Below, piece after piece: positions 1 to 52,756 of a DNA stretch of 64,000 nucleotides. The translations under genes were made by a program, and so were the position numbers. This DNA is from Botryllus schlosseri. Taxonomy: Eukaryota. Positions within the stretch are counted from its first letter, which is position 1; every line of letters starts with the position of its first letter. Under the pieces are notes generated by a model. The model had not been told where the DNA came from, ran no database searches, and was given only the letters and a program-made list of their open reading frames with translations. Location: positions 11,472,001-11,536,000 of the forward strand of contig CM119371.1 in NCBI GenBank assembly GCA_051294905.1, given 5' to 3'.

Positions 1-1536
1 TTATCGGTGTTACGCGGGGCCGCGACCAATTAGCAATATTCGTCTGTGCACGCATATCGCACAAGGCACAATGCTACGCGACGCGATTTCCCGCTGAAAT
101 ATTTTGAACGCGGCTTGCGGCCCTCATCGATGCAAATAATGCACTTTAATTTGTAGAAGGTCAGAAGGTGTATTTGTTCGTCAAATCGCGATAGGAGATG
201 GTGTTTGTCAGAGCGCGCGCTGAAATCTACGTTTCTAACGATGAGGTCGAATTTGTACATCTAATTAGGAAATCAGCATAGAATGTTGTCGTTCAAACTA
301 ATCGAATAAATTAAGAATTTGCGCCATCGCGAATCTCCCGTTGCATCAATTTTCGACAACGTAATTCGACCCCGTGTACTGCAGAATGCGCAGTACTAAT
401 AACAAATCAAACACTGACAAGTGACACCTAGGGAATACAAGTCTATAAAGCAGACAAGAATTAGTAGCCTTCAGATGATAGCAAACTAGATAGCGCGCAT
501 CTAATCAGTAATTCCACAACTTGCGTACAGCGCTAATGCCCAAACTTGCCTTTATCTGAAATGGAATGTGATGGCTGGAATGGACACTTTTGAATTGCAG
601 GAATGCTTCTCGCCTGTCTATTATGGTTCTTGTTAGTCCTTCACCTGTCTATTATGAATGCAATTATTCGCAGGGAAATGAAGACGATGAAATTCATATC
701 CTGCTCGAACTGCAGAAGACTCTCGAATAGACAAGAAAATAAAGTCGAACCATGGTTTGAGTGCGATATGTCTTTGTCAGGTAAGATTTGCTACCAGTCT
801 AGTATGGATCTGCTTCAGTTTAGATATAAATAGAAGTTCTATCAAATAGAATCTTTATATATGATTGAAATTCTTTAGCCGTCCCAAAACGAAGGTATAT
901 TATGCTATGCTAAACACTGCGCTCGACGTAATGGAGCTGCAAAATTTTGTATTAGGACCAACTGACGTGGCTGCGCGTCATCGATTCTTAACTCGTTGCG
1001 AAAATATGCGATGGTTAAGTTAACGCACTAGAAACGCGGAAGCTCGAGCGTTATGGGTCTTATGCAAAATTCATTCAAGTTATGTTTATCATATTTTAGA
1101 ATCAGGAAAGGAGGATTTTCACACTAACAGTATTGGAGTTGCCAAAAAGGAAGACATTTGGGCGTCCTAGGACGACAATTTCAAAAACTTGAAAAAGGAG
1201 GACAACTCCTCCTAAAGGATGTCGTATGTTAACCCTAATTTAATTGCAGCACCATTACGGTGACTTTCTGAAGACAATGTCTACGGCAAATTTTTTTCGA
1301 CCTGCGATTTGATTTGAGACCACCACATTTTTATAGCGCAGTGCCCCTCTAAGATTAAGCAGCTAACAAATTATGATCGAACGAGGTCCGAGGTTCATTG
1401 GTATCCCTTAAGATTCTGATGCTGTAGAGAAATTTATGCATCTGAACACAATTGGTGCATCAATTAATGCTTCAATTTATAATCGAATACTATAACAACT
1501 TATAATCAATTTGCCCTTTGGAGCTAAGCTTGTTAA

Positions 1537-2058
1537 CGGTGCACTGCACTCTAAAAACTATGTGGTCTCAAATTCAAGGGCGAAACGAGAAAATTTTTCA
1601 GGCCGCAGCCATTTTCTTCAAAACGCCACCGTAATGGAGCTGCAATTTATTAAATTTTCCACAGGGGAATCATACTCTAGCAGTCGCGCAAAAATCGAAC
1701 TTTATATATTTGTCAGCTGATGCTATGAAGGAAATATTTCGTACACGCCCTATGTCCCAAAAAATAGAATACACTAGGCCCGATTTTGACATAAATCTCC
1801 TGACTGAACATCTTCCGTTGAACGCGGTATCCAAACCACCTTTGAGTGTACGACATATTTCCTTCATAATAACATCGGCTGACAACGATATAAAGTTCGA
1901 TTTCTGCGTGACTGCTGGAGCATGATTCCGATGTGGAAAATTCAATAAATTGCAGCTTCTTTACGGTGGCGTTCTGAAGAAAATGGCTGCGGCCTGAAAA
2001 AATTTCTCCTTTCGCCCTTCAATTTGAGACGACATGATTTTTAGAGTGCAGTGCCCCT
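1537..2058. mobile_element. Palindromic MITE, Kolobok-like
   Basis: ~185-bp TIRs (GGTGCACTGCACTCTAAAA... / ...TTTTAGAGTGCAGTGCCCCT), flanked by TTAA on both sides. Confidence 0.7.
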
Positions 2059-2106
2059 TTAAACTATTCGCCGATTCAACTACACTTAAATCTTTAGTAT
2101 GAGAAG

Positions 2107-2671
2107 CAGTGTCGTAACCAAGTCACAAGGCTCCGAGTCACAACTCAATCTCGCTTTTCATAGGATTGACTCGAGTCAAGTCCGAGTCCAAATCACAACT
2201 CAATCTCGCTTTTTATAGGATTGACTCGAGTCAAGTCCGAGTCCAAATCAACAAGTAGAGGTTATAGTCCGATTCATGGTGTTATGACTCAAGTCCAAGT
2301 CATTGTGTTGACTGCTCAAGTTTCCAGTTGAAGTCCTGTTGAACCCACTTTTTATGACTGTTTGTTGATATCGAATGGTTCGCATTTATAATACACTAAT
2401 TTTCCTTACTTTTTAGTAGTTTCTGGTAGCATTTTAAAGTGCCAGTACCAATAGAAGAAATGCCAATAGTGTGGTTATTTTAGTATTCTTCGAAATTACG
2501 ATGAAATGTCTTTTTGGCCATCTGAGTATCGAGTCATAAGACTTGGTTCGAGTCATGTATAATGACTCAAGTCGAGTCAATACACAGATTGTGTCGAAAC
2601 GAGTCATTTTTGTGTTTTGAGAAAATGACTCGGGTCATGAGAAAGTCAATACTCAAGTCATTACATCCCTG
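2107..2671. mobile_element. hAT MITE (GACTCGAGTC-rich family)
   Basis: CAG..CTG termini and 8-bp TSD ATGAGAAG. Other copies at ~5185-5709, 17081-17586, ~43365-43781 and ~47502-47655. Confidence 0.8.
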
Positions 2672-2780
2672 ATGAGAAGTCTCCTATAAGCATTTCTAGC
2701 TGAAGTTGGTCATGTGCTCCGGATTTGCACGTGAATATTTAGCAAAATAATTTAAAGCTAACATATTGTTTTAATTCCAG

Positions 2781-3110
2781 GCACATACAGTCGATTTACC
2801 GACTTTAAAGTTGACTCCTCCTCATCTTTTGATTGCATGTCATGAGAATGGAGATGAACAATCGTGGATGGCGGCCAATGGCATCACCATCAAGCACAGA
2901 TCCGAAAACCAAAGAAGACCGTTTGAGATAATAACTGATCTCGTAGCATGCTACTACTCATGGTATCTTAGTTATCCCAAGGTCTTTCAAATAATGCCAT
3001 TCATTCAACATGTTCTTGTTGGTGATAAAAATTCGGGATTTCAGTCGAACAAGTACGTCAATTCTTGGAAAAAATATCAAAATGCCCAGCAATCGATTGA
3101 AAAAATGTAG
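2781..3110 (+). CDS. Terminal exon of the SAM-domain accessory gene of copy A
   Basis: TTCCAG acceptor followed by AHTVDLPTLKLTPPHLL...YYSWYLSYPKVFQ. Close homolog of 4745-5074. The upstream exon 674-780 is 2 nt longer than in B (frameshift). Confidence 0.7.
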   Translation, partial: AHTVDLPTLKLTPPHLLIACHENGDEQSWMAANGITIKHRSENQRRPFEIITDLVACYYSWYLSYPKVFQIMPFIQHVLVGDKNSGFQSNKYVNSWKKYQNAQQSIEKM

Positions 3111-4744
3111 GCCAATTAATCTCCCTTGCTCCAAGTACTTGTGCTGTGAGTACTGCTTTCTTTTGGTATGGAATGTACCTGTACATAGTGGATTTTGTTA
3201 TTTTCTGCATTTGCAAAATAATTTGTCTTTTTTGTGGCTAGACTTTTGCTATGCTTTCAATCAGTAAACTTTTCGTTTTTAGTGGCACTGTACATTAGGA
3301 CTGTTCCAAAATAACATACTGTTGAGCCAAAATTGGTTTACTATGGTTTTTTGGCAATTCAATCAATCATTTGATCATGAAACTAGTCAATTTGTGAGAA
3401 ACAATATTTATTGACGACATTACTGTACATACACCCCCTGCTTTCGTTCCGAATCCAATTCTTTTATACTGTTATTACTGTTGAATAGTATATTAATATT
3501 GAAATGAACCCGAATATTTTCAGTCTACACTCGTCAGCAAATCTACACTGTAAGCTAAAACGCGTGCATTTATGCACCAAAAAAACACACAATAATCGAT
3601 TTTTTTTTTAGATGCCACATTGTGTGGTAGCGATGTATGTCATAATATTGTGTGGTCTGAAGTGGCATGTCAGTACCTATCGCTGCAGAGCTCGAAATTA
3701 TGTACCTGAAATACCTCCACACTGTGGATCCACAGGCTCTTCTCGAAACAATATTTTATTTTAAAAGAATCGGTTGTAGAATGTACAATAAAAGAAACAG
3801 TGTAAGTTGCCGTTAAATATGACAATACAAATTGAAAACATAACAATTTTTTGGCGCAGTAAGACAGGATTTTATACAGTAATAACAGAGATTCTTGCAG
3901 GTACAGAACTGCAATACACAACTGAATAGTATGTGCTGTGCATATTGAAATGAACCCAATTATTTTCGGATGACACTCGTCAGAGTTAATAGTCAGCAAC
4001 TGGTGGAGAATTGGAAATAACATTGTATATCAACAATCGTATCACAAAATAGGCCTTCACCAGCATGAAATTCCGAGAGAGTGAGCGTTTAATGCACTAT
4101 TCCCATGCAGGTGGTGCACAAACTTCTGTTGACAGAGTTTCGAATGGTGTATTTTGATAAGATATAAAATACACCATTCGAAACTCTGTCAACAGGAGTT
4201 CGTGTACCACCTGGGAATAGCGAATTGAATGCTCTCTCGAAATTTCATGCTGGTGACATCATATTTTGTGATACGATTGTTGATATACAACGTTCTTTCC
4301 AATTCTCTACTAGATTTGCTGACGAGTGTCGACCGAAAATATTCGGGTTCATTCCAATAAGAATATACTATTCAACAGTAATAACAGTATAAAAGAACTG
4401 GATTCGGAACTAAAGCAAGGTGTATGTACAGTAATGTTGTCAATAAATATTGTTTCTCACAAATTGACTGGTTTGATGATCAAATGATTGATTGAATTGC
4501 CAAAATGCCATAGTAAACCAATTTTGGCTCAACAGTATGTTATTTTGAAACAGCCCTAATGTACAGTGCCACTAAAAACGAAAAGTTAACTAATTGAAGG
4601 CATAGCAAAAGTCTAGCCACAAAAAAAAACGAATTATTGTGCAAAGGCAAAAAATAACGAAATCCACTATGTACAGGTACATTCCATACCAAAAGAAAGC
4701 ACTACTCACAGTCCAAGTACTTGGAGCAAGGGAGATTAATTAGC

Positions 4745-7700
4745 CTACATTTTTTTAATCGATTGCTGGGCATTCTGATATTTTTTCCAAAAATTGACGA
4801 ACTTGTTCGGCTGGAATCCTGAATTTTTATCGCCAACAAGGACACGTTGGATGAATGGCAATATTTGAAAGACCTTGGGATAACTAAGATCCCATGCGTA
4901 ATAGCATGCTACGAGATCAATAATCATCTCAAACGGTCTTCTTTCGTTTTCGTATCTGCGCTTGATGGTGATGCCATTGGCAGCAATCCACGATTGTTCA
5001 TCTCCATTCTCATGACGTGCAATCAGAAGATGTGGAGGTGTCAACTTTGATGTCGTTAAATCGACTGTATGTGCCTGGAATTGAAACAATATGTTAGCTT
5101 CAAATTATATCGCTAAATACTCATGTGCGAATCCAGAGCACATGACCAACTTCAGCAAGAAATGCTTATTTGAGACTTCCCATAATGTAATGACTCGAGT
5201 CATGACTTTCTCTTGACTCGACATGACTCGAGTCATTTTCTCAAAACACAAAAACGACTCGAAGCAATCTGTGTATTGACTCGACTTGAGTCATTGCGCA
5301 TGACTCGAGACTCAGATGGCCAAGAAAGACATTTCCACCGTGATTTTGAATACTACTAAAATAACCACACTATTGGCATTTCTTGTATTGGTACTGGCAC
5401 TAAAAAATGCTACCAGAAACTACTAAAAGGAAAATCAGTGTATTATAAATGCGAATAATTCGGTATCACCAGACAGTCATAAAAAATGGGTTCAACAGAA
5501 CTTTAACTGGGAACTGAGCAGTCATCACAATGACTTGGACTCGGACTTGAGTCATAACACCATGAATCGGACTCTAACCTCTACTTGTTGACTGAGAATC
5601 GGACTTCACTCGGTGATGAATTGAAAATGACTCGACTTGACTCGAGTCAATCCTATAAAAGTGACATTGAGTTGTGACTCGGAGCCTTGTGACTTGGTTA
5701 CGACCCTGCTTCTCATACTAAAGATATAAATGTAGTTGAATCGGCTAACAGTTCAAAGGGGCACTGTTCTCTAAATATGATGTCGTCTCAAATTGAAGGG
5801 CGAAACGAGAAAAAGTTTTATGCCTCAGCCATATTCTTCAGAACGCCACCATAAAGGAGCTGCAATTTATTGAATTTTTCACAGGGGAATCGTGCTCCAG
5901 CAGTCACACAGAAATCGAACTTTATATCGTTGTCAGCCGATGAAGGAAATATGTCGTATAAGCAAAAATCGTTCAAATACCCCGTGCAACAGAAGATGTT
6001 CAGTCAGGAGATTTATGTCAAAATCGGGCCTAGTGTAGTCTATTTTTTTGGGGACTTAGGGTGTGTACGACATATTTCCTTCATAGAGCATCGGCTGACA
6101 ACTATATGAAGTTGGATTTCTGCGTGACTGCTGGAGCATGATTCCCCTGTGGAAAATTCAATAAATTACAGCTCCATTACAGTGGTGTTCTGAAGAAAAT
6201 GGCTGCGGCCTAAAAAATTTTCTCGTTTCGCCCTTCAATTTGAGACCACATAATTTTTAGAGTGCAGTGCACCGTTAACAAGCTTAGCTCCAAAGGGAAA
6301 ATATATTACAAGTTATTATATTATTCGATTATTAATTGAAGCATTGATTTATGCACCAATTGTGTTCAGATGCATAAATTTCTCTCTACATCATCAGAAT
6401 CTTCAGGGGTACCAATGAACCAACATCATCAGAATCTTCAGGGGTACCAATGAACCACAGACCTCGTTCGATCATAACTTGTTAGCTGCTTATTCTCAAA
6501 GGGGCACTGCGCTATAAAAATTATGAGGTCTCAAATTACCTCGCAGGTTGAAAAAAAATTTGCCACAGACATCGTCTTCAGAAAGCCACCGTAATGGTGC
6601 TGCAATTAACTTAGGGTTAACATACGACCTGCTTTAAGAGGATTTGTCCTCCTTTTTCAGGTTTTTCAAATTGTCGTCCTAGGACGCCTAAATGTCTTCC
6701 TTTTTGGCAACTCCAGTACTGTTAGTGTGAAAATCCTCTCCCGATTCCAAAATATGACAAACATATAAATTAAATGAATTTTGCATAAGACCCGTTACGC
6801 TCGAGCTCCCGCGTTTCTTAACCCATTGCGAAATTTATGGTGCGTTAACTTCACCATCGCTTTACTCGTTGTGACTTCTATATTTTCGCAACGGGTCAAG
6901 AATCGATGACTCGCAGCCACGTCAGTTGGTCTTAGTACGAAATTCTGCAGCTCCATTACGTCGAGCGCAGTGTTTAGCATAGCACAGAGGTCTCAAACTC
7001 AAATGTGCTCGCGGGCCATTTCCTAGTTTTTGATGACGCCACGGGCCGCAGCATGAATAATCGGGATATTCAGTGTAAAGGTTCTAACTAGGCCTTATTT
7101 GACGGGTCCTTGCAGACAGGCATTCCACAAACATCGTGGAAATGTGATTTACTATTGCATTTTTCATGCTTTTCACGAAATAAAATCACATTCTCAAATA
7201 TTTGAACAATCTTTTTTGTGCCCGGCCCAATTTTTCTAATTAATAAGTTATAGACATAATACGAGAGGATGCATCATGACCAATGTTCCCTCTAATTTTT
7301 GACGAGTCTTCGCAGACTCACCAACTCAGTGCGCAGACCCTACGACAACAGTGCGAAACGACTAAAAAAAGGTCATTACTTTGGATTTTTTGTGCGCAAC
7401 TTAGATAATCTGTGCCCAGAGACCGTGTCAGCACCGTGCGCAGCACGTGCGAGGGAACATTTATCATGACATTGTAAAACTGTCGGTTATAATAATGCAG
7501 CTAGTGGACCTTTGACGTGCCACAATTTTCTGTAGTATATTTTACAATATACTGAAGATTGATCTGATATCAGAGCATTTGAGAGGTGTAGCCTAATCCT
7601 GGTTTTGATAAAGTCGTTATAAATATAGGCTATTGTTATTGTCATTGCCAGATTCAAATTAAATCAGCGTTAGAGTTTGCCTTCGATTATTATTGGAACA

Positions 7701-16700: not shown

Positions 16701-19700
16701 CAGCAGCCCAGCAACGTTGACTTTGATCTTAATCGCAAGTCAGTCAATTGTTTCTGAAGAAATAGCAGACTTTTGACTTCTTTGCTTTCATCTTCTCCCT
16801 GGAAAACATTGTTCAAACAAAATTTATATTTATAAAATACTCTTGCTTGGCTCGAGGTCTGGAGTTTTAACTTAGGATTGCAGGAAAGTTGTAGAGTAGA
16901 CTGCTAACGTTACGTCACTGCTGTGTCAATGCAATGTGCTCTAACTTTCCAGTTGAGCGAGCAGTAGCTATAGATAGACATAGGTATTGATAACTAATCT
17001 ACCGATAGTTGTGCAACACGTGACTCACTGTTGAATACGCCAAGATGAGTACTGCTTAACCGGCAGAAGCAGCATATAGTCAGGGTTGTAACAACTCGGG
17101 TCGATTTTCTGATGACTCGAATTGACTCAAGTCATTTTCTCAAAATACATAATAAATCGACTCGAGTCAATCTGTGTATTGACTCGACTTGGACTCGAAT
17201 CTTTGGGTATAACTCGTACGAAGTCATATGACTCGAGACTCAGACGGCAAGACCGACATTTCATTGTAATTTCGAAGAATAGTGAAGTAACCACCCGAAT
17301 GGCATTTCGTCTATTGGTACTGGTACTTGAAAATGCGACCAGAAACTGCTAAAAGTGAGAAAAATTAGTATATTATAAATGCGAACCATTCGATATCCCT
17401 AAACAGGGTTATAAAAAGTGGGTTCGACAAGACTTAACTGGAAACTGAGCAGTCAACACAATGACTTGGACTCGAGTCATAATACCATGACTCGGACACG
17501 AATCTCTGCACGATGACTTCGACTCAGACTTGACTCGAGTCTGAACTATAAAAGTGAGATTGACTTGTGACTTGGTTACAACCCTGATATAGTCCTATAG
17601 CTCGCGGCCAATGGCGTCGATCGATCGGAACAATGCCAATTTGGGCCTGACACCGAGAAAAGTTGGGAACCACTGGCTTAGATGATTTGATAAAGTATAC
17701 ACGTGAAAACAATGACATGAATTTCGCGGCTACGTATAAAAATCATTCATCTGGTGTAGCCCGCGAGCAATCTGAAGGTTTGAATCCGGCCCGAGACACC
17801 AGTTGAGTTTGACACCCATGCCCTATAGAGCCCTGGTCTCCAACTCAAATGTGCTCGCGGGCCAATTCCTAGTTTTTAATGATGCCGCGGGCCGCAGTAT
17901 CAATAATAGGGATATTCAATGTATAACTTCAAAGTAGATCTTATTTGACGGGACCTTGCAGACAGGCAATCCACAGACCTCATCGAAATGTGATTTACTA
18001 TTGTATTATTCACGCTCGACACAGGAAAAAATTACATTTCCAAATATTTGAATAAAATTGTTTTTGTGCCGGCCATAATTTTTTCAAATTAATGAGTTAT
18101 AGACATTGTGCGAGAGGATGCATCATGACATCGTAAAACTGTCGGGCTATAATATTGCAGCTAGTGGACCTTTGACGTGCCACAATTATACGTAGTATAT
18201 TTTACACTCTACTTAATAAATCTGATATCGGAGCATTTGAGCGGTGTAGCCTAATCCCGGTATTGATATATGTAATGGCTGTAATTGAGAAGGTCGTTGC
18301 ATGATCATGATCATAGGCCGAAAAACATGCAATGAACACTTACCCAGTGAGGGCACCCAACTCCATCATATCGTAGGCATGGATACTTTTCGCACAGATG
18401 CCTGGAGAATTCGGCATATGCTCTTTTGCATGTCATATCACCATGTAATCGGATGTGGTATGCGCATTCTTCCACCACGGCATTTAGTAAATGTCCAGCC
18501 TTTTGATGTTGTTCCGACGCGACACTGAAATCAATGAGTGGCGCTATATCAGGTGTCGGGATCCTGCCTGCTGCACACTAAATCTGGCTCGGACTATAGT
18601 CAAACCGTTGCGTATCAAATCTTCTTCTGATCTCAAATTCAAGCAGTCCAAACGAATTATACGGAAACAGCTTGTTCAGAATGAAGACATGTAAATGGTG
18701 AGATTCGCAAGATTGCTTGCTCGTCCGATAACAGTTGAATGGAGAACGAAATAGCAGCAACAGAGCAATATAAAGGTAAACGAAAACGGACGATGCAACA
18801 ATTCAATCAACCAATCATTAAATCAAACAAAACAATTAGGAGTTGTCGAGGAGAATAACCGAATGAAAATTAAGAACAGTAACTAAAAACATGACTCGTC
18901 AAAACACTCCCCCACTTGACCGACTATGATCGGTCAACAGATGTTTCATAATCTATCCAACTTCAAAAGACGAACGAATAGATGTAGAATGACCGCCGAA
19001 CCCGCTAATGTCGAGACAATCGCTTTTATTAGGTGATAGCTTCAATGAACCACCTAGATCACGAGTTACAAAGCTCTTCTGGGAAAAAGAGTCAAACGCG
19101 ATTCTAACCGGTTTACCATCACCGTTGTGGTTGATTCGTCCCAACGCAGCAGGCAATAATGTGTTTGAATCTGAATCCCGCAATGCAGAGGTGGAAACGT
19201 CAATAGTTGCTACCATACACTTGGAGTTGATCGATGGTTCCGCAGAAACGTGTAGCAATTTGTGGTGGGTTTTCCCGCAACCAGTGATGGTACAACGCTC
19301 CTTGCATTGATGAAAGTGTTTCGGATGGCCTTTGTGTCCTTTCGGTGCTAAGCATCTAAAACACACTTTCCCGGGCTTCAAAACCAAGTCAGCCAATCGC
19401 TGGGCTGGAGTCAATTTCACGAATCTGAAGCAATCTTTCAATAGATGAGGTTTGGAGCAATAGGCACAAGATAATGGACGAGATTGAACGACGAGAGACT
19501 GGACTGAAAACGATCGATCAGGCTTCTCGGTATCACAACTAACCCGTTCATCTTTATGCTGCGACTTATCACAAGCAGAGCGGCTTCCATCACGCGACTT
19601 ATGTAGAGATTCCATCGTCGCCAACTCGGTTGTTAAAAACTCAAACAAAAGATCAGAATCAGGAACCTCATCGGCTTCGATCAAGGGACTGGTTTTCCTG

Positions 19701-22700
19701 ATCCAACGCTCATGCAACGTACCCGGCAACTGGGACTCTAGTACCTGTGTAAACAGTTGGTCCCAAGAGACGTCGTACTGCGATAAAATAGCCCTTTTAG
19801 CAGTAGCGGCATCGAGAAGTCGTCGGACTTTGTCGATCTTAAATTCCACTTTCTCACCTTGCAGCAAGTCTTCGATATGATTTCTCACTATAGCTTGCTT
19901 CTTGCCGTATCTCTTAAGAACGGCATTCACTGCAGGCTCATAATTCACGGCTGTTGATGAGAAACCATTGAGAAGGCCGGATGACGATCCTTTAAGAGCC
20001 GCCTTTAAATAAGAGATTTTGTAGAAGTGACTGACCTTCGGATTCTTATGAACCAGCGGCTCGAACGACTCCCAGAATTGAGGAAAGGTCAAAATGTCAC
20101 CATTGAATGTAGGCGGCACAATCCCACTCGGGAGAGATCCAGCGGCGTGTTCGGCTTCCTCGGCAGCTTTAAGTGATGAGGACTTTGATTTGGCAAGAGG
20201 AATGTGAACAAAATAAATCTCTTTTGATCTTCTCTTGCCATCAATGATTTCGGTCTTGATATCATCATCGTCAAGCTGATCGATTTTCGAATCCACGAAT
20301 GTCTTGAGATCGGTCATTGACATTTCTACCGACCGTATGAAGACGTTGATTTCTTCGGCAGAGGTGGAATACTCATATTTATTTTCAAGCGCTTGCAAAG
20401 AATCGACCACTTCGGCATTCAGGCGTCTGAATTTCCTTATAATAACATCAGGTAGACATGAATCTCCAATGCTTGCCGATGGATGGTTTCCGGGCTTCTT
20501 GACAGCGTCTTTCAAGATTTCACGCAAGCTGAGTCGGTCTTCTAATGACTTCTGACGAATTTCTTCCAGTTGCAGTTGAAACCGTCTTTCGGATTCTTCA
20601 CGGTCTTGGGCATGCTTCAGCTCTAGCTCTTCGAGCTGCAACTGAAACTTGAGGTTGGCAGCTTCACGATCTAATTTCTGCTGCTGGCGATCAGCTTCAC
20701 GATCTAATTTCTGCTGCTGGCGATCAGCTTCACGATCTAATTGGTGCTGCTGACGATCGAGATCTTGCTGATGCTTCATCATCTGAAAAATCATAACTAG
20801 TTCAGATGGACTCCCGGTGGTGCTCAATGGAGAGGACTGCAGTTCTTTCTTTTGTGAAGATTTGTCGGAATCTCGGATTTTCCCTAATCGGTCCGTCAAT
20901 ACAGCTTCGCTCCCACTTGTAGCTTCGCCAAGTTCTTGCAATTCGGGTCGTAAATCGTCGACCGCCATCTTAGCTAATGGCTTCCAAGTCGGTGCCAAGG
21001 CTGGAGACTTGGGGGATTCCGATGGAGACTTCACAAACGACATCTTTCGATTGAATATAACAACTATTTAAATGTAGCAGATTTAGTGCCAAGCAGAGTC
21101 GATAGATCTTCGTTGGACAGCAGAGTCTTGAATGTAGACTGATACCATGCGGTGCCTGAATTTGAGAGCGTATCGAAGATATCGGCTTTAATGGGCTTCT
21201 TGCGAATTGTTCCGACGCGACACTGAAATCAATGAGTGGCGCTATATCAGGTGTCGGGATCCTGTCTGCTGCACACTAAATCTGGCTCGGACTATAGTCA
21301 AACCGTTGCGTATCAAATCTTCTTCTGATCTCAAATTCAAGCAGTCCAAACGAATTATACGGAAACAGCTTGTTCAGAATGAAGACATGTAAATGGTGAG
21401 ATTCGCAAGATTGCTTGCTCGTCCGATAACAGTTGAATGGAGAACGAAATAGCAGCAACAGAGCAATATAAAGGTAAACGAAAACGGACGATGCAACAAT
21501 TCAATCAACCAATCATTAAATCAAACAAAACAATTAGGAGTTGTCGAGGAGAATAACGGAATGAAAATTAAGAACAGTAACTAAAAACATGACTCGTCAA
21601 AACAGATGTTGCAATGCGGATGCAACACGGGCATTGAATTTCGGTAATGTAAATCTCTTTTAGGCAGGAGCAATTCCCAGGAGACTATCAATCTTCTGGA
21701 ATTGAAGCAATTCCTAGCTCACTATCGTCTGAAACAGGAGCAATTCCCAGCTCAGTGTCGTCTGGAATCGTTTGAACATATCCGACCTAAAATGAAATAT
21801 CATACTCAATTTAGGTGTATTGGTAGCAGTGTTGGGATGACTCGAGGTCCAAAAGTCGGGTGACTTGACTTGACACGAGTCACCTTCGAGAATAGCTTGA
21901 CTTGACTCGAGTCAAAATGTACTGTACAATGACTCAAAATGATCCAACACTGATTGGTAGATTATAGTGATGTAAATGTTCATACCAAAACGTCAGTATT
22001 TGATGCAGGCGAGTCCTTCGTAATAAATCTACTTGCATCTTCATGGGTTCAATTTGCTGTAAAATATAGTTCCATGTAACAGTGCATGAAATATTGCCTT
22101 TAATAAGTTCTACGCACATCAGGAGTAGATGTCACTGGATTTTCGAAATCATTATTCTGAGCAGGTACATGCGGCACTAAATCGGTCCCACTGTGTTTGA
22201 TCGACCCCAACCACTTTTGCAAGACAAGATTAGATGATGCAGATCGCTCCCTTTCTACGATGGGAAATTCATAGCTACGAATGCGGAAAAAACGTACTCA
22301 CATCTCTCAGGGCAATCAAACGGTACATCAAGCCAACTTTGAAATCCATTTTAACGAAATCCTCATCAGCCAGCAAGCCGAAAACCATGCTACATACTTC
22401 ATTTTCTGAGAAAACAAAATACAAATATACATTTCACTTCCAAATGTATGGCATGTTGAGCAAATACTCTACTAGCTTTAGCAGGACTACCTGTAAAGAC
22501 ACCACACCTGATCAACACACTTGGTTATAATATACTGAATGTCGCCAATTTTGGGACTAATTTGTGGCCGTGGATAGGTTAAGTCGGAAACTTTACAAAA
22601 CTCAACAACGCGACTACTTTCTACAGCAAATGCATTGAATTTGGACTCAAAATACAGAACATTAAAGCGACCAGTAATAGTATGCCGATATTTTGTGTTT

Positions 22701-25700
22701 TTCACGGTGGGATCCGATTGGATCAACTACTTCAAATTCATCAAAATACAGGGAGAATAGCAGGCAGTCAGGGTGACTGGCTATCCCAAGATTACTTTTA
22801 AGATAATCTCCATGTAAGCATCTGTCATGGTATGACACCCGTGAAACGGAGTAGGCTTTGAAATGAGAGATTCGGCAGTGACATTAACAGTGCTTCCAAC
22901 TGCTGCATAAAAAGTACAAAGTAGCAGTATGCAGAAGCAGTCTGGAGCATATAACCATCTCGAGTTAAAATATTTTCAAACCATCTCCCAAATTCGACAC
23001 TTTCAGGTTCAATAAGACCAAAATGTTCCTTATAAGAAGTTTTTCTTGCTTCCTTTATTTGCAACAAGCACAGTGCATCTGAGGATGAATGAGTGTATCT
23101 GCAGAAATGCTACTAAACAAGTTGACATTGGATGACAAAACATCAGTAAGCCCAGAATCACTCAGTTTATGAATAGTTTAGTCGCAACAGTAAAGCTGCT
23201 TGAGCCAGAATACCGACTCGATAGGGCGCTGCTGAACTTTGTCTGCGCGGGCTCTATATTAAATAAAATCAATATTAGTAATTTTTTCATGATGTTATAT
23301 TCCAATGTAAAGGATTATCATACCATACTACACTGTTTTTGCCAGGAACTTAAGCCAGTTTTTACTGTACAATTTTGCATTCTGCCGATTGCTACAAAAA
23401 CGTGGTCATGTGCTGCTATGTTGTCGTGCTGTATTATATCTGCATGTGAAAGCTTACAATGAACCAAAATGCGTTATTGCACGTTAACGAATAACAGTCG
23501 ACTTGTTGAAATTGAAGACAGCACTTTGGCATATCGGTAGTAAATATGAACTGTCTTATAGCTTTGATTCAGGTAATGGATATTCTTAACACTTACCTTT
23601 CAATACGTCGACATGTCTTTGTTCTATGCCGTCTCCCAATAAGAATTCAGCTAATTCGTAATCCATCACGAACGATCACTAATAATACTCGCACTCGACT
23701 CGACACTTAGCACAGAAGACTCGCAACTCGACACTCGTGATAAATGCGACAGAATATGCGATCAACGCTCTCTGAATTCCCGCGCCTGACACACCAGCGA
23801 GCGCGTGATACCGCATTTCGTTTGTGAGTTTATGTTAGGAGATAAGAGGAAAATGAGGAATGAGCCCGATATATGTCACTCCCGCGAAAACAGACCTCGC
23901 TCTCTCGCTTGAACGGTGTTTACTTCGATATCACGCAACTCGAGAGAGGGAAAAAAGTCATTTCGTGTTTTAATCTAACGCTTGGAATTTAGAGTGTACA
24001 TCACCATACTTACCCCGAAAATCAATTATAAACCAATTTACCATCTGTAAATTCAGTAGGCGCCGAGCAGTTCCCACAGTGAATAATTTCTGCAAGTCGC
24101 CTTCAGTCAATGTCCCGAAGACACTCTCATCAATCTCATTTTCTGTGAGAAAAAGAAACAAAATATCTTGTAGCACCACCACAAAGTTACAAAGGCCAAC
24201 TCTGACCAATGTGTCTGGTCATAACATACTGAACGCCATTTATCGTATGGGTGATCTGTGGCCAGGGGTATTGGAAATCAGGAATATTACGGTACCCAAT
24301 ACAATGATGTTTCTTTAACAGCAAATGCGTTCATTGTTGGGCTGAAAAAGAGCACTTCTAATTTCTGATAGCGGCAGATGATACATTCATCAACAGAAAA
24401 CAAATCAGTGATTACAAAGAAATTGATAAATTCGAAGTCAGGTATCTTATACACAAAGACATCTCCCAAACTGTAGCAGATATTACGATAAGACACACTT
24501 TTAACAGAAAAAATATAATCACTGTTAGAATTTGAAATATGCCTTTCAATCTCAGGAACGTCAGATATGGGAACTTTGGATGCCACATGGAGATTTATTT
24601 TGGGTTCCAAATAATTAGTCTTCTTTTCCCCTTGTTTGTCAATCATTTGGATGTGTAGCGTACCGCTCCATGATTAACCTGTAATTACCCTCGCTGATTA
24701 CTGATTATGTTACTGCTACGTCTTGTTGTATGTACTCTTTTATGCAGTCGCCTTTAGTCACCGTCTGATCCAGTCGCTTTTAGTCACCGTCCGAGCCAGT
24801 CGATCTCCTAGTCTTCGTCGGACGAGCATCGTCACGTTTTAGTTGTTTTATTAAAAGAGCAATGCTGACTTGTATACTTTGACTTATCGAGCCGCGGACC
24901 AAGAAGAACGCGCGCTCACGACAGAGCACGCTATAGATGCACATCCAATGTTGATGGTATGAGCTTAAACTCATGGCCAAATTTTTGAAATTGAACCATC
25001 TTTTTGATTTAAAAAAGCCATTTTTTGCTTCGTATCTAATCGCACATTGCATCCGCAAGGGCCCAAACTGAATCATTTGTTCTGGCAAGTGGACAAGATA
25101 ATGTAGTTTGGGGTGAATGGCATATCGGGGTACAGGCGTATAATTTCTGCATTGTGAACAGCAATCAGATATTTGAGATCAACACAAGTTTCCTCAGATA
25201 CTACAGTAGATAGTGACAGCTGAACTATTTGAAGTAACCTCAGCAAATTCAACCAATGATCATTACTTTCAGAAATATCTGGTCCAATAATGAAAGGCAG
25301 AACTTGAAACAACACAAGCATGTTAGCAGCAGTTTGTGGAAAATTTGCTGAGGGTTGCAAATGTTTTCTCTCGATCATTTGAGGTTGATCTTTACGGTCA
25401 GATTTACTATACTCAAAATTCCGAAGCTGACTGTTCAGCCGAGGAAGTGACAATGTGCCATGTTCAATTTCACGTAGCAAAAATGCCTTAAACTCCATTT
25501 TCACTATTCCTTCGAGCAGAATATGCATAACGTCATGAACCATACATTTGGTCACATCAAAATAAGGGATTTCCGATAGGAAAGTTCTCTCGTTAACACC
25601 AAGTTGACGTGACATTGCGATTCGGTCTTGAGCACTCTCACATTGTTCAAGAGACTGCAGACAAATTTCATGCTCATTTTTGTTCCGAATTGGGCATTTT

Positions 25701-27335
25701 TCATGGATAGAATAAATTGAGAGATCTGTTTTAGCAACATTACATGTGCGGCATGGCTTATAAGCGCCACCAACACCTTCTTTAAAACCAGCCATTAGTT
25801 GGGAGGCAGGGGTGTCACCAACACAAAACAGAACGTATCCGTGTATAGTTTTTTTATACCATTCACTGTGAGAGTAACACATCTGGCCATTTGTTGCATC
25901 GCCTCAGAAAAATCCTTCAAAAGTTCATTACGAGAAGAAAATTCCTTCAAATCAATAGATTTTGCAATGCATAAGAGCTGAATGCTACCAAGCTGACTAC
26001 GGCATTCGGGTGGAATATTCAGAAGGGACCAGTAAAATGCAGACATTTTATGCTTTTTGCGATGGGCACCGATTGGATTCACAATTTCAAATTCATCATG
26101 ATACAGCGAAAGCAGCAGGCTGTCAGCATTACGATTAAACCCTATATGTGATTCAAGAAATTTTCCTTGTGTGACATCTTTCATTATACCATTTGTACGC
26201 GGTGATTGTGGTGATGGCAAAGTAAGGCTACACAATAACGTTTCAAGCTGCTTGAGAAAAGGAACAAAAAAACCTGTGGCAGGTTTTTCAATCAGCTGGT
26301 TCTTTCCACAATGATATTCATTTGCAAAACGCATTCCTAATACAACTTTTTCATGATTAATTAGGCCAAAATGCTCTCGATAGAATTTGTTTCTACCGGC
26401 TTTAGTTTGTAATAGTTAAAATCCCAATCCCTGTTCTCCCGAATGATAGGATGTACAAGGGCTGTCAATGGTGGTGTTAGTGGTACCTATCAAAGGAGAA
26501 AAATTGCCACCACCATTTGAATTGACTATATCATCAAGTCCTGCATCACTCAATTTATGTAATGTTTACAGTCTCAGCAATAAAGCTGCCATGGGTAAAA
26601 TGGAGGTAAGCTCAGAACAAGGTGTATAACCTGATCCACGAGCAATTTCATTCTGCATGGGTAAAGTAGATGTAAGTTCAGAGCAAGGTGAAGGGCTTGA
26701 TTTCTCAACATTTCCAATTTTGCAATAGGATTCGGGCAGCAGGTCATAGTCAAGAGAGGATGGTGCTTCATAGCAATACAAGTCCAGTGTCTTCATATTT
26801 TTGTGTCTCCTTTTACAATGGCTACGGATATCTTCATATTTTGAATACACTATGCCACAGATCCTGCATGACATGAGAACACTCGGATGTTGATTGTGAC
26901 GCCTCAATAAATGTGTTGACAGCAAATCGGTAGTTCCGATAAAGGGGCACAACCAACACTTTCCATTAGACATAGACATTCTACCGAACCATATCAAGTA
27001 ATTGAAACTGGTCAACTGCAAAGAAAGATGTACGTAACTTAATCTGCAAGTGAGGTTTCATCACTAGGTCTATTATGATATCTTCAGAGGAAGTACTTAA
27101 ACAGCATTAGCTCCCATTTTCATGGTCTGCTCTTATGGCGCATTAAGCTGCTAGATAGAAAATAGATAATCTATATATATACTCATACCGCTGGGCGCTG
27201 GTGCTGTGTGTGAAACTCGAAAACATGAACATGACATTATTTACAGATGATGTTGAAAATTTACATAAACGAATTACCTTGTAGTAAATCAATATGCTCC
27301 CTCTTAATTCCGTTTTGCACTAAAAATATCTCCAT
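4745..27335 (-). CDS. Spliced SAM-domain (SAMD3-like) accessory gene of EnSpm copy B. Exons include 27335-27278, 24142-24042, 14801-~14654, several in 14600-13700, 12296-12192 and 5074-4745
   Basis: Phase-compatible GT-AG junctions give MEIFLVQNGIKREHIDLLQ-ENEIDESVFGTLTEGDLQKLFTVGTARRLL (SAM-like). The last exon has DLVACYYAWDLSYP..FIQRVL. Intactness of the middle exons was not verified. Confidence 0.7.
5757..6274. mobile_element. Kolobok-like MITE at the orthologous position in EnSpm B
   Basis: Reverse-complement counterpart of 1537-2058 with homologous flanks. Confidence 0.7.
7281..7462. mobile_element. Small hAT MITE
   Basis: CAATGTTCCCTC / GAGGGAACATTT termini and 8-bp TSD ATCATGAC. Confidence 0.75.
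8199..9182 (+). pseudogene. Harbinger/HARBI1-like DDE transposase, frameshifted
   Basis: GVPNVIGCIDGTHIPI, RWPGSTHDSRTF and TRVLIEQCFGVLKQRF lie in different frames. The usual GDxGY motif is missing. Confidence 0.9.
9700..11544 (-). pseudogene. Possible convergent spliced second gene of the Harbinger element
   Basis: ATG at 11544 with a GTAAGT donor near 11416, a candidate exon at ~10807-10867 and a charged coiled-coil-like exon at ~9700-9919. No Myb/SANT motif was recognised. Confidence 0.3.
18510..18906 (-). repeat. 3' LTR
   Basis: Direct repeat of 21208-21604; two substitutions seen. Confidence 0.95.
18953..21043 (-). CDS. gag: BEL/Pao Gag (SAP-like N-terminus, coiled coil, DUF1759-like capsid region, three Cys/His knuckles) fused to a truncated aspartic protease
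   Basis: 696-aa intact ORF with PPTFNGDILTFPQFWESF, CAYCSKPHLLKDC, CFRCL..H..C, CTITGCGKTHHKLLH and RIAFDSFSQKSFVT. Confidence 0.9.
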   Translation of the reverse strand: MSFVKSPSESPKSPALAPTWKPLAKMAVDDLRPELQELGEATSGSEAVLTDRLGKIRDSDKSSQKKELQSSPLSTTGSPSELVMIFQMMKHQQDLDRQQHQLDREADRQQQKLDREADRQQQKLDREAANLKFQLQLEELELKHAQDREESERRFQLQLEEIRQKSLEDRLSLREILKDAVKKPGNHPSASIGDSCLPDVIIRKFRRLNAEVVDSLQALENKYEYSTSAEEINVFIRSVEMSMTDLKTFVDSKIDQLDDDDIKTEIIDGKRRSKEIYFVHIPLAKSKSSSLKAAEEAEHAAGSLPSGIVPPTFNGDILTFPQFWESFEPLVHKNPKVSHFYKISYLKAALKGSSSGLLNGFSSTAVNYEPAVNAVLKRYGKKQAIVRNHIEDLLQGEKVEFKIDKVRRLLDAATAKRAILSQYDVSWDQLFTQVLESQLPGTLHERWIRKTSPLIEADEVPDSDLLFEFLTTELATMESLHKSRDGSRSACDKSQHKDERVSCDTEKPDRSFSVQSLVVQSRPLSCAYCSKPHLLKDCFRFVKLTPAQRLADLVLKPGKVCFRCLAPKGHKGHPKHFHQCKERCTITGCGKTHHKLLHVSAEPSINSKCMVATIDVSTSALRDSDSNTLLPAALGRINHNGDGKPVRIAFDSFSQKSFVTRDLGGSLKLSPNKSDCLDISGFGGHSTSIRSSFEVG
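21208..21604 (-). repeat. 5' LTR
   Basis: Direct repeat of 18510-18906. Confidence 0.95.
22487..23540 (-). pseudogene. Remnant of copy C transposase (N- and C-terminal parts; catalytic core deleted)
   Basis: YKEHFGLIEPE..YFVLFMQQLEALL matches B YREHFGLINHE..FFVPFLKQLETLL. FESKFNAFAV matches B FSPTMNAFAV. Confidence 0.75.
24290..27021 (-). pseudogene. CACTA/EnSpm Tnp2-like transposase of copy B with N-terminal C2H2 zinc fingers; frameshifted and interrupted
   Basis: Motifs LYHDEFEIVNPIG, FYWSLLNIPPECRS, GDTPA..GFKE..CRTC, HDVMHILLEG and FGPLRMQCAIRYEAKN are spread over ORFs 26566-27021, 25795-26334, 25073-25882, 24780-25088 and 24287-24646. Two CxxC..HxxxxH fingers at the start. Confidence 0.9.
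24654..24935. mobile_element. Solo LTR (Ty3/gypsy-like) inserted in the B transposase
   Basis: TGTAGCGT..ACGCTATA termini and 4-bp TSD GATG. Excision restores the frame HWMCIQMIDK. Confidence 0.8.
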
Positions 27336-47496: not shown

Positions 47497-50400
47497 ACGT
47501 ACAGGGTTGTAACCAAATCACATGGTTCCGAGTCACGAGTCAATCTTACTTTTGTGGCTTTGACTCGAGTCAAGTCGAGTCACTTTCAATTCATCGTCGA
47601 GTCCGAGTCCAAGTCATCGTTTAAAGGGTCAGGTCCGAGTCATAGTGTTATGACTAGGGCCATTTAAAGTCATTAAATTCATATTTTTTTCTATGCATCA
47701 GTAAGTCGTGAAATCAATTTTAACGCGAAAACCACGTCCCTATGGGTTATATTAAGAAAGTTATAAAGTCATATAAAGTCATATTTTCTTGGTTATGTCA
47801 TATTTGAGTTATAAAGTCATATTGTTGTATACTTTAAATAAAAAGTGCCAATTTAAGCGGTGAAGCAATTAAGCACTAAAGCACTAAGAAAGTAGGGCAA
47901 TTTCTGATTGAACGAAGGCAAGCTTTAAGGTTAGCCTACATAGCACCACAGTCACAGACCTATGAGGTCACACATTGCATTGTGTTGCTATACAATCTGT
48001 TGTACTTCTGTGCACTGAAGTAGGACGTCATTTGAAGTTCAGTCAGTGGGTAGACAGGCTAACAGGCACTATCTTGGTCTACTTATATACAAATACATTC
48101 GGATTTGAATAAAATAGTATTTACGGTGGGCACTGCTATAATAAATAATTGAAGAATTGGTCACCGAAATATGCCTCCACTACAACAATATTTCAAACTT
48201 GATACTGAAAATGGAAAGTTGTAAGTACACCATCAGAGAGGCTAATGCTGATCTAAATGCCCTTGATTTCAGAAAAAAAATCCGCTTGAGCTGAAAAATT
48301 TTATTTAACCGTTTCGCACCGGCGTGTCTATTTTTCGACATGCCGGTACGAGAGAAGAGTACCGTAATTGAAACCACGATATATTACATATTAATCGTTC
48401 TAGGTCGTTGCTGTTCATTTCTGTGAATAGATATTGTTCGTACAAGTTCATTGATACCTTGTAATTTGATATTTATTATATCGAAGACGTCAAAATCGTA
48501 TATCAAACGCCGTAGATAAATATGTTGCAAAATACACTGTGTCGGCAATTTGCGCGTCATTGACCACTCTCATATAACGTTCTGTATGTTTCGTTCTAGC
48601 CGTCTTCGGGCATAGTTGTTTCATTATGTGAATAGCTAGTGTCCATACAAGTCCACACGTATCTTCATATCTGATATTAGTTACACCTAAGCTGATCAAA
48701 AGCTATGTGATAGGCCGCGTGACAAAAATATCCGCCGACGCATCATTTCGCAGACACGCGCGTTCCTCATACCCGCCATATACACTGTCGTTTAGTTGGT
48801 TTTATTCGTCATAACCAGCTGTAGTTTGTTGCAATGAATAGCGATTGTCAGTTTCTGTTTATATTTTGCTAAAGCAACTATACTAGTTAGTTCTATACCG
48901 CTCAAGGTTTCATTTGAAAACCGGGAAGCGAATTCCGTCAGACTACCGTACCAGCTTCAAGCACATGGCTGAATACCCGTCACATACCGTGAAATATATC
49001 GTGTTCTGATAGCCATAAACATTCATAGATTGTGTCTGTGAATTGTTGTAGCCTATATGATTCTAAATAACGGCTAATGATAAAGTATAATTCGGAATAC
49101 ATACAATATTACTCAGCGATAATACCTACGCAAAAGCGTGCGTCAGTAGTGAGGGTTTCGACCTTATAGACCGTCCAATCAGAGAGCGCCACGTCATCCT
49201 AATTGCCACACCCATTTTCATGCCCTGAGGGTACATTCATCTGCTACGTCATCTGTGCCACATCATCAAGCGCCACGCCTATAGTGCCACATCATCCATC
49301 CATTGCTATATCATCGCTGCATTGATTGCCGCATCTTGATACTTTTCTCAGATATTGTATTATGTGTATTTAGGACTAATATCATCCGTCCATATTTTTT
49401 AAACTTTATTTTATGTGTACAAGTTACGGTTTCTGCAGTTTCCACATTTTACGACTTATGATTGCCGCGTCAAATCTTACCTTGGCTAGAATCGACAGAT
49501 TTTCTATTATGTGTATTTAGGACTATGTATTTAAATTCCTATTCAGATTATACATAAATGCGAAAACTATGATGTCTATGCAAGGCTATATTCTCCGGAT
49601 AATATTATTAATATCAAAATTCTACACATCATCACTAATTACTTAATATAAAATGCGATTTTGAGCGCTGCGACTTGATAATATGAATCCCTACGCTTCT
49701 GATGCATGATTTTTTGTGATAAGGACCTAGGTAACATTCAGAGTCTGCAACGATTGTTTGGATATACATTATAGCAATACCCCACTAAACTATAGGCGGT
49801 TATATTACTCTATTGGTCAGAGATAACTCATCCGTCCATATTTTTAAACTTGATTTTATGTATACAAGTTACGGTCTCTGCAGCCTCCACATTTTACGAC
49901 TTATTTTCATTAGACGCAGGCAAGCGATTCTCCAGTTCGTAGCTACGGAAACAAATCACTCGCATGTGCGCGTTCCGAATAGTCTTGTAGAATTTTCTAA
50001 AGTCGTAACAGCTTAGCAGCAATACGCGAATCCCCAGGCGAAAATAATCGAACGAACTATAGCCGCAGGCGTGCGATTCGCGGGGCTTTAATTATATAAA
50101 CACTTTCGATACCTGTACGCGAACCCCAGCGTTATAACGATTAGGTCTAATTAGCACGTTCTGAAGCCGTAAATTTAGTCAACATCATTGAGATAGCCAT
50201 GAATTAAAGATGGTAATCGAGTGTGACAATAGCACTCGTCAAGGTTAGACAAACATAACCTTAAACTACTCTCTACTTCACAAAATATAAAGTTATAAAA
50301 GTAAGCAGATTTCTATGAAAACCCGTTATCGTTACGTAGAAGTGGGGTTAGTCTACGAACATAACCACTTACTTACTTTGAAATCTCTACTTGTATTCGA

Positions 50401-51197
50401 GCGGAATTGCGACCGATGCATTAATGACTTTAATACTCTATATTTTAAATTATCATCGCAAAGTGCACGAATTTCCATGTTGATCAAATAATACGAACTT
50501 TGCTTGCTTTCAGAGTAGAGCTTTGTAAAGTAGATCTTTTTGGTGTTGGACTCAAGTTCCAATGAACAAGTGTTCACGTAGCTTCGAGGTCTGAATGAGT
50601 CTTTTAAAGTAGATAAAAACGACAAAAACTAACCGAAAGAATTTACGAAGTTTGGATGCGCCATATTTAGGTTTTTAAAAATTATTCATACCCATGATTC
50701 GAAATATTGTTAACTAACTTATGTTTTCGACATAAGATAAGCGTCAAGTGTACAAATTTCGATGTTGCGCAAATACCACAAACTTTGCTTGCTTTCAGAG
50801 CCGGCAACTAAATGCAAGACAGACTTTACGCAAAAAGTTGATATTCTGAACATTTTATCAAGTTAATAGTTTAAAAACTTATACTTGAGCACTACGAAAT
50901 GTACAAGTACTTTACCTTTACACGACGTTTTTTGTAAAATGAATACTAATTTTATTAAGAAAACTATGGGAATGAGGTATTAGAAAATACCAATTCGAGA
51001 GGTTCTCTACTAGATAGTGCATAGCTTTCTCCATCGCCTATACCTGATGCTGTCGGATAAGTTTATGACACTGACACCTCTCATCCAGAGCAATGAAAAA
51101 AGTACATTCCAACATTTTATTATCACTAAATTTCTACTAAAGTACAGGAAGTGCAGATCTCCAACAAGTGAAAAAGTACGTATTAAAGGTATAGTTT

Positions 51198-51428
51198 GCC
51201 AGATAACTGAAAATAATAAATAAAATTAAAAAATTAAAAAGCGCGAAATATTACATTTTATCCCGGAACGCAACAAGAAAAATCGTATGAGTTTTGTAAA
51301 GTAAATAGAAAACTATGCCTGATAACTGAAAATAATAAAAAATAAAATTAAAAAGCGCGAAAATTACATTTTATCCCGGAACGCAACACGAAAAATCGTA
51401 TGACTTTTTTAAAGTAGAAAGAAAACTA
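51198..51428 (+). repeat. Tandem duplication, 2 x ~115 bp (mirrored at 61561-61791)
   Basis: GATAACTGAAAATAATAAA...TTATCCCGGAACGCAAC occurs twice. Confidence 0.85.
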
Positions 51429-52756
51429 CACTATTCCGATGCACTAAAGACTTTCACACTCCGGATTTTGTATAGTATATAATAATTTTACATTGCGGGG
51501 TATTCAGTAAACTTTAATCCAGTGATCCTCCGTCTATTTTCAATCACGCTCCTCTTATTAGTATAGGTTTCGAACCACACATCCAGTACGTTTTATGGGG
51601 ATTAATATTTTTAGACTCAAATACATTTCCAATGTACCAAAGTCTTACAGTACAGATTTTGTAGAGTAGTTAGAAAACTACCTTTTGAGTCGATAGCGAA
51701 GTACTTGCTCATTTTAGAGTACTCAAGTATTGGTTTGGCCTTGGTAGCAATGTACTCAATCAAGTGATTATCTATTTACAGCGCACTAAAAATTTACTGA
51801 TACTAAAATGTTAAAATGTACTTTTTCAATGCCCTCGATGAGCAGCGCCAGTTTCAACTATATCCTATCATGCATTTTCGCGCTGCAGAATGACTTATCG
51901 CAACGAAAAATAGCAAAAATACATCGAGAATCTGCAAACTCTCACTGCGAAATATTTGACTTTTGCGAATTATCCTTCAAAGTGAGCTTACATATTGGAT
52001 ATTATCAAAACCCTCTCCATATCGAAATAATTGTACATTTGGAGTACTTAAGTATAGGTTTTGCCTGCTTGCGCTATACTTAATCAAGTGATTATCTATT
52101 TAGACTTCATCTACTTCTATTTATATTTCAGAGTTTTCAGTTATCAGACAAATAATACATTCAATACTTACTTTTTTACTCGCTCGGAAATCAGCACTTC
52201 ATGTACTTCAGAAGAAATTTACTGGTAATAGAATGTTGAAATGTACTTTTCCATTGGCCTTGATGAGCGGGCCCAGTTTCATCTATATTGTACAATGCAT
52301 TTTCACACTTCAGAATGACTTATCGCAATGAAAAATAGCACAAATACATCGAGAATTCTCGAACCATCACTATACGATAATTGAGTTTTACAAATTACCC
52401 GTCAAAGTGAACCTACATGTTGGGTATTATCCAAAACCTCGTGGAATTTTGCTCCGAGCGACAAATCCTTTGAATTAAGGTGGAAGTACCTATTTCCGAC
52501 TAAGTAAAACGTCAGTATTCCAGGTCTATTTCTGCTCAATTCTGAAACTATAACGGATTTGAAGCAGTACAATATCATAAACACTTGAGAGTATTTGTTG
52601 CATGTAGGCAAAAAACGTACTTGAGTACTCGGAAGAAGTCAATGCTTACTTGTTTAGCCGCTCGGACATCGTCACTTCTTGTACTTTAATGGAAATTTAC
52701 TGCTGATAAATGAGTAATCGACTTTACTCGATATTCGCGTACCATGAAACTGAAGA

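Follow-up and report, generated by a model that had tools for sequence, protein, structure and literature searches.

The locus

The window, i.e., the whole stretch of 64,000 nucleotides of Botryllus schlosseri DNA that was analysed, carries an LTR element of 3095 bp on its minus strand (21604-18510), which is home to the complementarity between PBS position and LTR discussed below (Table 1). Its two LTRs, of 397 bp each and of the TG...CA type, show two mismatches. The ORF upstream of the polypurine tract (PPT) contains a BEL/Pao Gag with DUF1759 (E 9.4e-22 in a domain search), in agreement with the BEL/Pao identity proposed in the first-pass annotation, while searches for RT, RNase H and integrase gave no match anywhere within the 64-kb window. 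The ORF stops inside the protease, and the full-length relative P0170 (2001 aa) aligns to its product over residues 38-682 only (39.9% identity), which identifies the element as a non-autonomous copy. The near-identical LTRs and the intact target duplication imply a recent insertion, and the element is thus a young, non-autonomous BEL/Pao copy. Its borders are independently confirmed by five RNA reads of run X22, which pass from one flank into the other with the 5-bp duplication present just once between them and therefore represent an empty site (28 of 30 letters match). Such reads at 18504/21605 mean either that the target is transcribed and the insertion polymorphic, or that the target is repeated elsewhere. 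Within gag, three near-tandem units of 36 nt (20758-20659) extend a coiled-coil-like stretch, which is shorter in the related proteins P0001 and P0002.

Table 1. Features of the BEL/Pao element, listed in the direction of its sense strand.
Feature	Positions	Strand	Evidence
Target-site duplication ACATC, upstream copy	21605..21609	-	sequence; empty-site reads
5' LTR, 397 bp, TGTTTTGACG...CGTCGGAACA; ends complementary at 8/10 positions	21208..21604	-	
Inverted CCAAT box (ATTGG), promoter-like, putative function	21509..21513	-	motif
TATA-like motif; predicted start ~21440, ~30 nt 5' of the 10-mer	21465..21472	-	
Candidate self-primer TCTTGCGAAT (helix H1, 5' strand)	21401..21410	-	
Helix H2, LTR strand; 15 bp with one G-U; partner 21167-21153	21329..21343	-	
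Helix H3, LTR strand; 12 bp with one G-U; partner 21089-21078	21273..21284	-	
U5 stem-loop; closing 21257-21253 x 21216-21212; 4 nt short of LTR end	21212..21257	-	MFE fold
PBS position ATTCGCAAGA, adjoins LTR, without TGG (helix H1, 3' strand)	21198..21207	-	
Helix H2, leader strand	21153..21167	-	
Helix H3, leader strand	21078..21089	-	
ORF, 696 aa: BEL/Pao Gag (DUF1759, Cys/His clusters) and initial part of protease; remaining pol missing	18953..21043	-	
Hairpin adjoining PPT	18916..18937	-	fold
Polypurine tract GTGGGGGAG, before 3' LTR	18907..18915	-	
3' LTR, 397 bp; 2 differences from 5' LTR	18510..18906	-	
Target-site duplication ACATC, downstream copy	18505..18509	-	

Other repeats lie elsewhere in the window. 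A perfect inverted repeat of 6972 nt (49145-56116 and 56873-63844, with 756 nt between the arms) may be a palindromic Polinton satellite or an assembly artefact. Three short minus-strand ORFs are found at 25073-27057, the first of which matches a Plavaka transposase (E 3.9e-07) and the third of which has weak zinc-finger matches, and nested inverted repeats at 700-7000, with arms of up to 562 nt, are probably stacked non-autonomous DNA transposons.

The PBS position and its complement in the LTR

The first-pass annotation had pointed out that the 10 nt following the 5' LTR (21207-21198) do not begin with TGG, and indeed they read ATTCGCAAGA, with no TGG in the 28 nt following the LTR. The exact complement that it had reported in the LTR is likewise present: TCTTGCGAAT has a single occurrence in the LTR (21410-21401), and the match stops at 10 nt. 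Its geometry is primer-like in that the LTR segment pairs by its 3' end with the base that directly follows the LTR, and the match falls within the screening rule for self-primers given in an excerpt of PMC6317226 (a minimum of 10 bp, beginning 0-5 bp downstream of the LTR). When the LTR was dinucleotide-shuffled 20,000 times, a 10-nt match arose by chance with a probability of 0.00115 at offset 0 and of 0.0032 at offsets 0-4. The earlier estimate of about 4 in 10,000 was thus too low by a factor of 3 to 8 (0.001-0.003), so that one element chosen among many is unconvincing by itself. Both 10-mers are free of variation among the variants listed, which comprise 22 variable sites in 397 nt, although this has about one chance in three by hand arithmetic and is not significant. 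ARAGORN detected no tRNA gene in the window or in the 83 loci compared below.

Relatives of the element

A profile search for relatives of the window protein yielded 150 proteins among the matches listed, and Peptidase_A17 is present in the top matches of sufficient length. A subgroup of these proteins is defined by motifs in the protease (D-S/T-F/M/L) and in the RT (VFNAS, GP.LQPD and RYQ.YLW). A SAP domain occurs in four of the 17 proteins scanned, all four from this subgroup, and was not found in the window protein. One subgroup member is named from the limpet Patella vulgata, and the hosts of the clade are apparently marine invertebrates.

The 83 loci used for comparison comprise 80 from a metagenome scan and three from a scan of genome contigs, none of the latter three lying inside the clade; scans of viral contigs found no relative. 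In a quick RT-RH tree of 66 rows, built without reference sequences of named lineages and with a 70% coverage filter that excluded L042, the loci L001-L004 and L065 form one clade with P0014, P0024 and the P0170 family (SH-aLRT 100). The kinship of the window protein, which lacks RT, to this clade was read from protein match scores: against the 83 loci its best scores are 144, 137 and 125 bits with L002, L001 and L003, and 80 bits or less with the others. L056 and L057 have one RT motif in common but fall outside the clade in the tree and were left out of the comparison. Relatives with PR-RT-RH-IN in a single ORF are P0024 and L001 (1978 aa). A comparison with the named BEL/Pao lineages (Pao, Sinbad, BEL, Tas, Suzu, Flow and Dan) yielded no placement of the clade: its RT motifs are missing, or found in unrelated families, in supplement 6 of PMC3118150, and the two Suzu families seen there carry other motifs.

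Two further observations concern the clade as a whole. Its protease motif reads D-S/T-F/M/L (window ~19095-19115; P0001, P0002, P0005, P0009, P0012-P0018, L001 and L002) as opposed to D-S/T-G in other BEL/Pao elements. Retroviral-type proteases normally require this glycine, and judging from the motif the clade protease may be an unusual enzyme. Moreover, each of the four clade elements inspected (window 18937-18916, L001, L002 and L004) has a hairpin, of differing sequence, immediately ahead of the PPT; a similar inverted repeat was noted by eye in the control L028, and the hairpin may therefore be general for BEL/Pao.

Self-complementarity in the relatives

The 5' LTR end is visible in two of the five clade loci (L001 and L002; L003, L004 and L065 lack it). 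Both are devoid of TGG at this position and each pairs with its own LTR, and the three PBS sequences, including that of the window, are mutually different. Self-complementarity is thus kept with different letters in two relatives of the autonomous type, which is the outcome that the covariation test suggested in the first-pass annotation had called for.

In both loci the LTR ends were set by eye from the PPT and the terminal motifs, as both are permuted contigs. In L001 (LTR 256-665), an 11-nt complement starts at offset 2 and pairs with 572-582 (4 of 3000 shuffles), a P value that is optimistic, and an end that is less secure, because the complement was seen while the end was chosen. The pairing is lengthened by ~8 bp beyond a 5-nt bulge, and the PBS begins with a run of T. 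In L002 (LTR 1474-2050), the PBS pairs over 9 nt at offset 0 with 1879-1887 (55 of 3000 shuffles). Here the LTR ends in the same nine letters as the LTR of the window and is complementary to its own start at eight of nine positions, which makes the placement of the end independent of the pairing test. The paired segment of L002 starts exactly after an intron-like stretch of 68 nt (GTAAG...TTTAG, 1811-1878), a predicted GT-AG intron inside the LTR, and once this intron is removed the match extends to 11 nt by including the last 2 nt of the upstream exon (1 of 200 shuffles, with any GT-AG pair allowed). A splice-built primer was also sought in the window element, where no GT-AG junction yields a match. 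At the start of the L002 leader (2051-2095), the 11-nt PBS stands twice in tandem as a perfect copy, followed by a third copy that is degenerate, possibly a footprint of PBS recopying.

As controls served 11 of the 83 loci (10 distinct), in which ACA is followed by a TGG-type site and which pair over 5-7 nt with 187-600 nt of upstream DNA; since they were picked for TGG, they show only that tRNA-type elements lack such a match.

RNA structure of the leader

The duplex between candidate primer and PBS is one of three LTR-leader helices (H1, H2 and H3) in the window with a core of at least 10 Watson-Crick pairs, where 0.09 would be expected (reached in 0 of 150 shuffles), and all three cross each other. 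The predicted probability of H1 depends on the RNA end: with an end at 21190, just past the PBS, it amounts to 0.93-0.97 whichever of five 5' ends was used, to 0.02-0.49 with an end at 21150, and to 0.00 in nested folding with the leader to 21070 or 21020, in which forcing H1 costs 5.3-13.4 kcal/mol. These folds exclude pseudoknots and so cannot judge crossing helices, but they still show that H1 has competitors. Both other helices that join the leader to the LTR are longer than H1, which could thus belong to a general RNA structure.

The U5 stem lies 4 nt before the PBS in the window, and L002 has a 9-bp stem at U5. A second LTR-leader helix is present in L001, and the controls L042 and L028 have one each, away from their PBS. 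Variants of run X4 fall in the leader strand of H2 at three places, two of them by our reading leading to G-U and one to a mismatch, and no compensating change in the LTR occurs among the variants listed for this run.

Transcription start and RNA data

A transcription start near 21410, as considered in the first-pass annotation, is not supported: no pile-up of read starts was seen, the promoter-like motifs point to ~21440, and the full match of L002 needs an upstream exon. Among 93 RNA reads from three runs (18 from X24, 75 from X22 and none from X21), neither a pile-up of starts or ends, nor an RNA joint, nor a cleavage site was seen. Promoter-like motifs of the window LTR are the inverted CCAAT box (21513) and the TATA-like sequence (21472-21465), and the usual spacing of such boxes to the start would suggest that the transcript begins near 21440, ~30 nt before the 10-mer. 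L002 carries, upstream of the intron, three CCAAT boxes as well as a YY1-like motif that precedes the match by 137 nt, and in L001 the extended pairing requires RNA upstream of the core match. Together, the promoter motifs of the window, the upstream exon and motifs of L002 and the extension in L001 hint that the primer may be internal. In L001 and L002, AATAAA comes 31 and 37 nt behind the match, respectively, which places the match in R in both elements; neither AATAAA nor ATTAAA is found in the window LTR.

The element-sense depth of X22 is 10-18 across 21604-21411, with 15.5 in the last bin (21411-21441), and then falls to 7.7 (21380-21410), 1.3 (21349-21379) and 0 in the three following bins; four X22 reads enter the LTR from sequence that resembles the PPT region of the element. 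The layout of this run (28+90, mean 59 letters per record) fits 3' and some 5' single-cell kits, which makes the meaning of the strand uncertain, and the run was left aside for placing the start site. If X22 stems from a 3'-end kit, the transcripts contain the 10-mer and have their ends some tens of nucleotides beyond it, consistent with a short R.

Probable self-priming and its alternatives

These observations suggest that a BEL/Pao clade that includes the window element primes minus-strand DNA with its own RNA, independently of tRNA, a reading to which we assign a probability of about 0.7. The case is built on three elements, i.e., the window copy, whose anatomy is shown above, L001 and L002, in each of which the TGG site is missing and the PBS has a complement in the element's own LTR. 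The genomic RNA would fold in vivo such that the R segment 21410-21401 pairs with 21207-21198, and RNase H provided in trans by an autonomous relative might cut 3' of 21401, on the model of Tf1. RT would then extend the new 3'-OH through U5 and into R, of which 40-100 nt would remain after the cut and permit the first strand transfer. Of the self-priming originally proposed for this element, independence from tRNA is supported by the missing TGG PBS and by the complement kept in relatives, whereas the notion that the primer consists of the first ~11 nt of the transcript is not supported. Given self-priming, there is a slight preference for a primer formed by the 3' end of a longer 5' fragment (~40 nt here, according to the promoter motifs) over one formed by the 5'-terminal 11 nt. 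A wider version is tentative and falls somewhat short of even odds: the whole animal BEL/Pao clade may have dropped tRNA priming, with an internal R segment that primes after a cut at its 3' side and carries a long unpaired 5' tail, and, in the L002 type, with a pairing segment that arises only after host splicing of the LTR intron.

The LTR-leader pairings could instead constitute a structural switch for packaging, dimerisation or translation control, with another RNA acting as primer. This would account for H2 being stronger than H1 (-20.4 against -12.6 kcal/mol) and lying away from the PBS, for the exclusion of H1 in full-leader folds, and for the additional helices of L001 and of the two controls. 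It is nevertheless unlikely, because in each of the three clade members the helix begins within 0-2 nt of the LTR end, where the 3' end of a primer must lie, and takes the place of the TGG site, at which the TGG controls have no helix; moreover, a switch names no primer. Less probable still is that the PBS binds an internal tRNA fragment, as in the half-tRNA priming of copia elements, or another host small RNA, which would make the LTR match secondary. By reasoning, the 10-mer can be fitted to an anticodon arm with UGC at positions 34-36, but this layout demands G37, which would be at odds with the usual tRNA-Ala loop. An accidental match to the element's own LTR would have to be assumed for each of the three different PBS sequences, and an Rfam search of 20900-21700 gave no match (E up to 5), although such a search has little power for 10 nt. 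Half-tRNA priming as such does exist in the Osser, Bryco and Bianca copia lineages (excerpt of PMC6317226).

Priming might also proceed from the RNA 3' end, if the polyadenylation machinery cut at 21401 and the resulting end served as primer. Should X22 be a 3'-end library, the fall in depth from 15.5 through 7.7 to 1.3 would put 3' ends soon past the 10-mer, and the run of T that opens the L001 PBS would suit a primer of this kind. However, eight sense reads of X22 still cover 21397, five reads (direction not given) extend ~20 nt beyond 21390, AATAAA stands downstream rather than upstream of the match in L001 and L002, and a poly(A) tail is unable to pair with the window PBS, all of which makes this route very improbable. 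We consider it just as improbable that the complementarity arose by chance in a degenerate non-autonomous copy. A P of ~0.003 for one element carries little weight when many LTR elements are scanned, and the unspliced L002 match is weak alone (0.018), but the insertion is recent, with near-identical LTRs and an intact target duplication, and position-specific pairing is found in both testable relatives as compared to none of the 11 controls.

If the self-priming reading is true, a mechanism demonstrated only in fission yeast would have arisen independently once more, this time in animals and in a third LTR superfamily. The elements would presumably be beyond the reach of silencing by tRNA fragments, and the reading predicts nameable RNA ends that can be found by existing assays. 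Should the primer be internal or splice-built, the rule taken from Tf1, by which the RNA's 5' end serves as primer, would not be general, and if pairing of the L002 type needs splicing, the start of reverse transcription would be tied to host splicing.

Comparison with known systems

In the literature searched, self-priming in BEL/Pao was not found, most subscription papers and the Repbase and GyDB entries being outside the reach of this search. PBS and tRNA terms are absent from the main texts of PMC3118150, PMC6238403, PMC554778, PMC2774666 and PMC8556966, the PBS is mentioned only generically in PMC8220671, and no BEL/Pao case of self-priming is named in the excerpts of PMC3601003, PMC6934838 and PMC4600332. 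The ICTV describes the Belpaoviridae (Semotivirus) as tRNA-primed, with a PBS of 18 nt that matches tRNA-Arg or tRNA-Gly at the 3' end, and calls their replication poorly understood (PMC8742986). The window element resembles this family in its LTRs, which fall within 0.2-1.2 kb, its target duplication, its BEL/Pao-type Gag with DUF1759 and its PPT of ~10 nt, as well as in the PR-RT-RH-IN order that its relatives have in one ORF. It differs in the lack of the 18-nt tRNA PBS, in its length (3.1 kb, compared to genomes of 4.2-10 kb), in the absence of a full pol (PR, RT, RNase H and integrase), most of which is missing, and, together with its clade, in a protease with D-S/T-F/M/L instead of D-S/T-G.

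Self-priming is described for Tf1/sushi elements, and its prediction for Tcn1 and for the TAR lineage of copia shows that it has been proposed outside Tf1/sushi as well (excerpt of PMC6317226). The sequence rule used for the TAR lineage (Houba and Osr-1, plant Ty1/copia elements) and for Tcn1 also applies to the window element and L001, and to L002 only across the predicted intron, where at least 10 nt are reached. These elements are from plants and belong to other superfamilies, and no BEL/Pao case is given in the excerpt.

The self-primed group comprises Tf1, Tf2, Tj1 and the Tf1/sushi chromoviruses of Ty3/gypsy (excerpts of PMC7175516, PMC10085805 and PMC4600332). In Tf1, an RNase H cut between nucleotides 11 and 12 of the RNA releases the primer (excerpt of PMC7175516), and a "pretzel" structure combines a central primer-PBS duplex with two more that join sequence beside the PBS to LTR sequence downstream of the primer (excerpt of PMC10085805). 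As in Tf1/sushi, the PBS of the window element adjoins the 5' LTR and has a complement of ~10-11 nt within the element's own LTR, there is a U5 stem beside the PBS, and additional duplexes connect leader and LTR; by our reading of the excerpt of PMC10085805, the helix order crosses H1, as one Tf1 duplex does. The arrangement is more spread out than in Tf1, with H2 and H3 starting 30 and 108 nt after the PBS instead of adjacent to it. Furthermore, the Tf1 primer consists of the first 11 nt of the RNA, whereas the motifs in the window suggest ~30 nt of RNA before the primer, and the full match of L002 spans a predicted intron. The window element has a BEL/Pao Gag, and its relatives a Pao-type pol, in place of the proteins of Ty3/gypsy chromoviruses, so that it would be Tf1-like in its working without being a member of that group.
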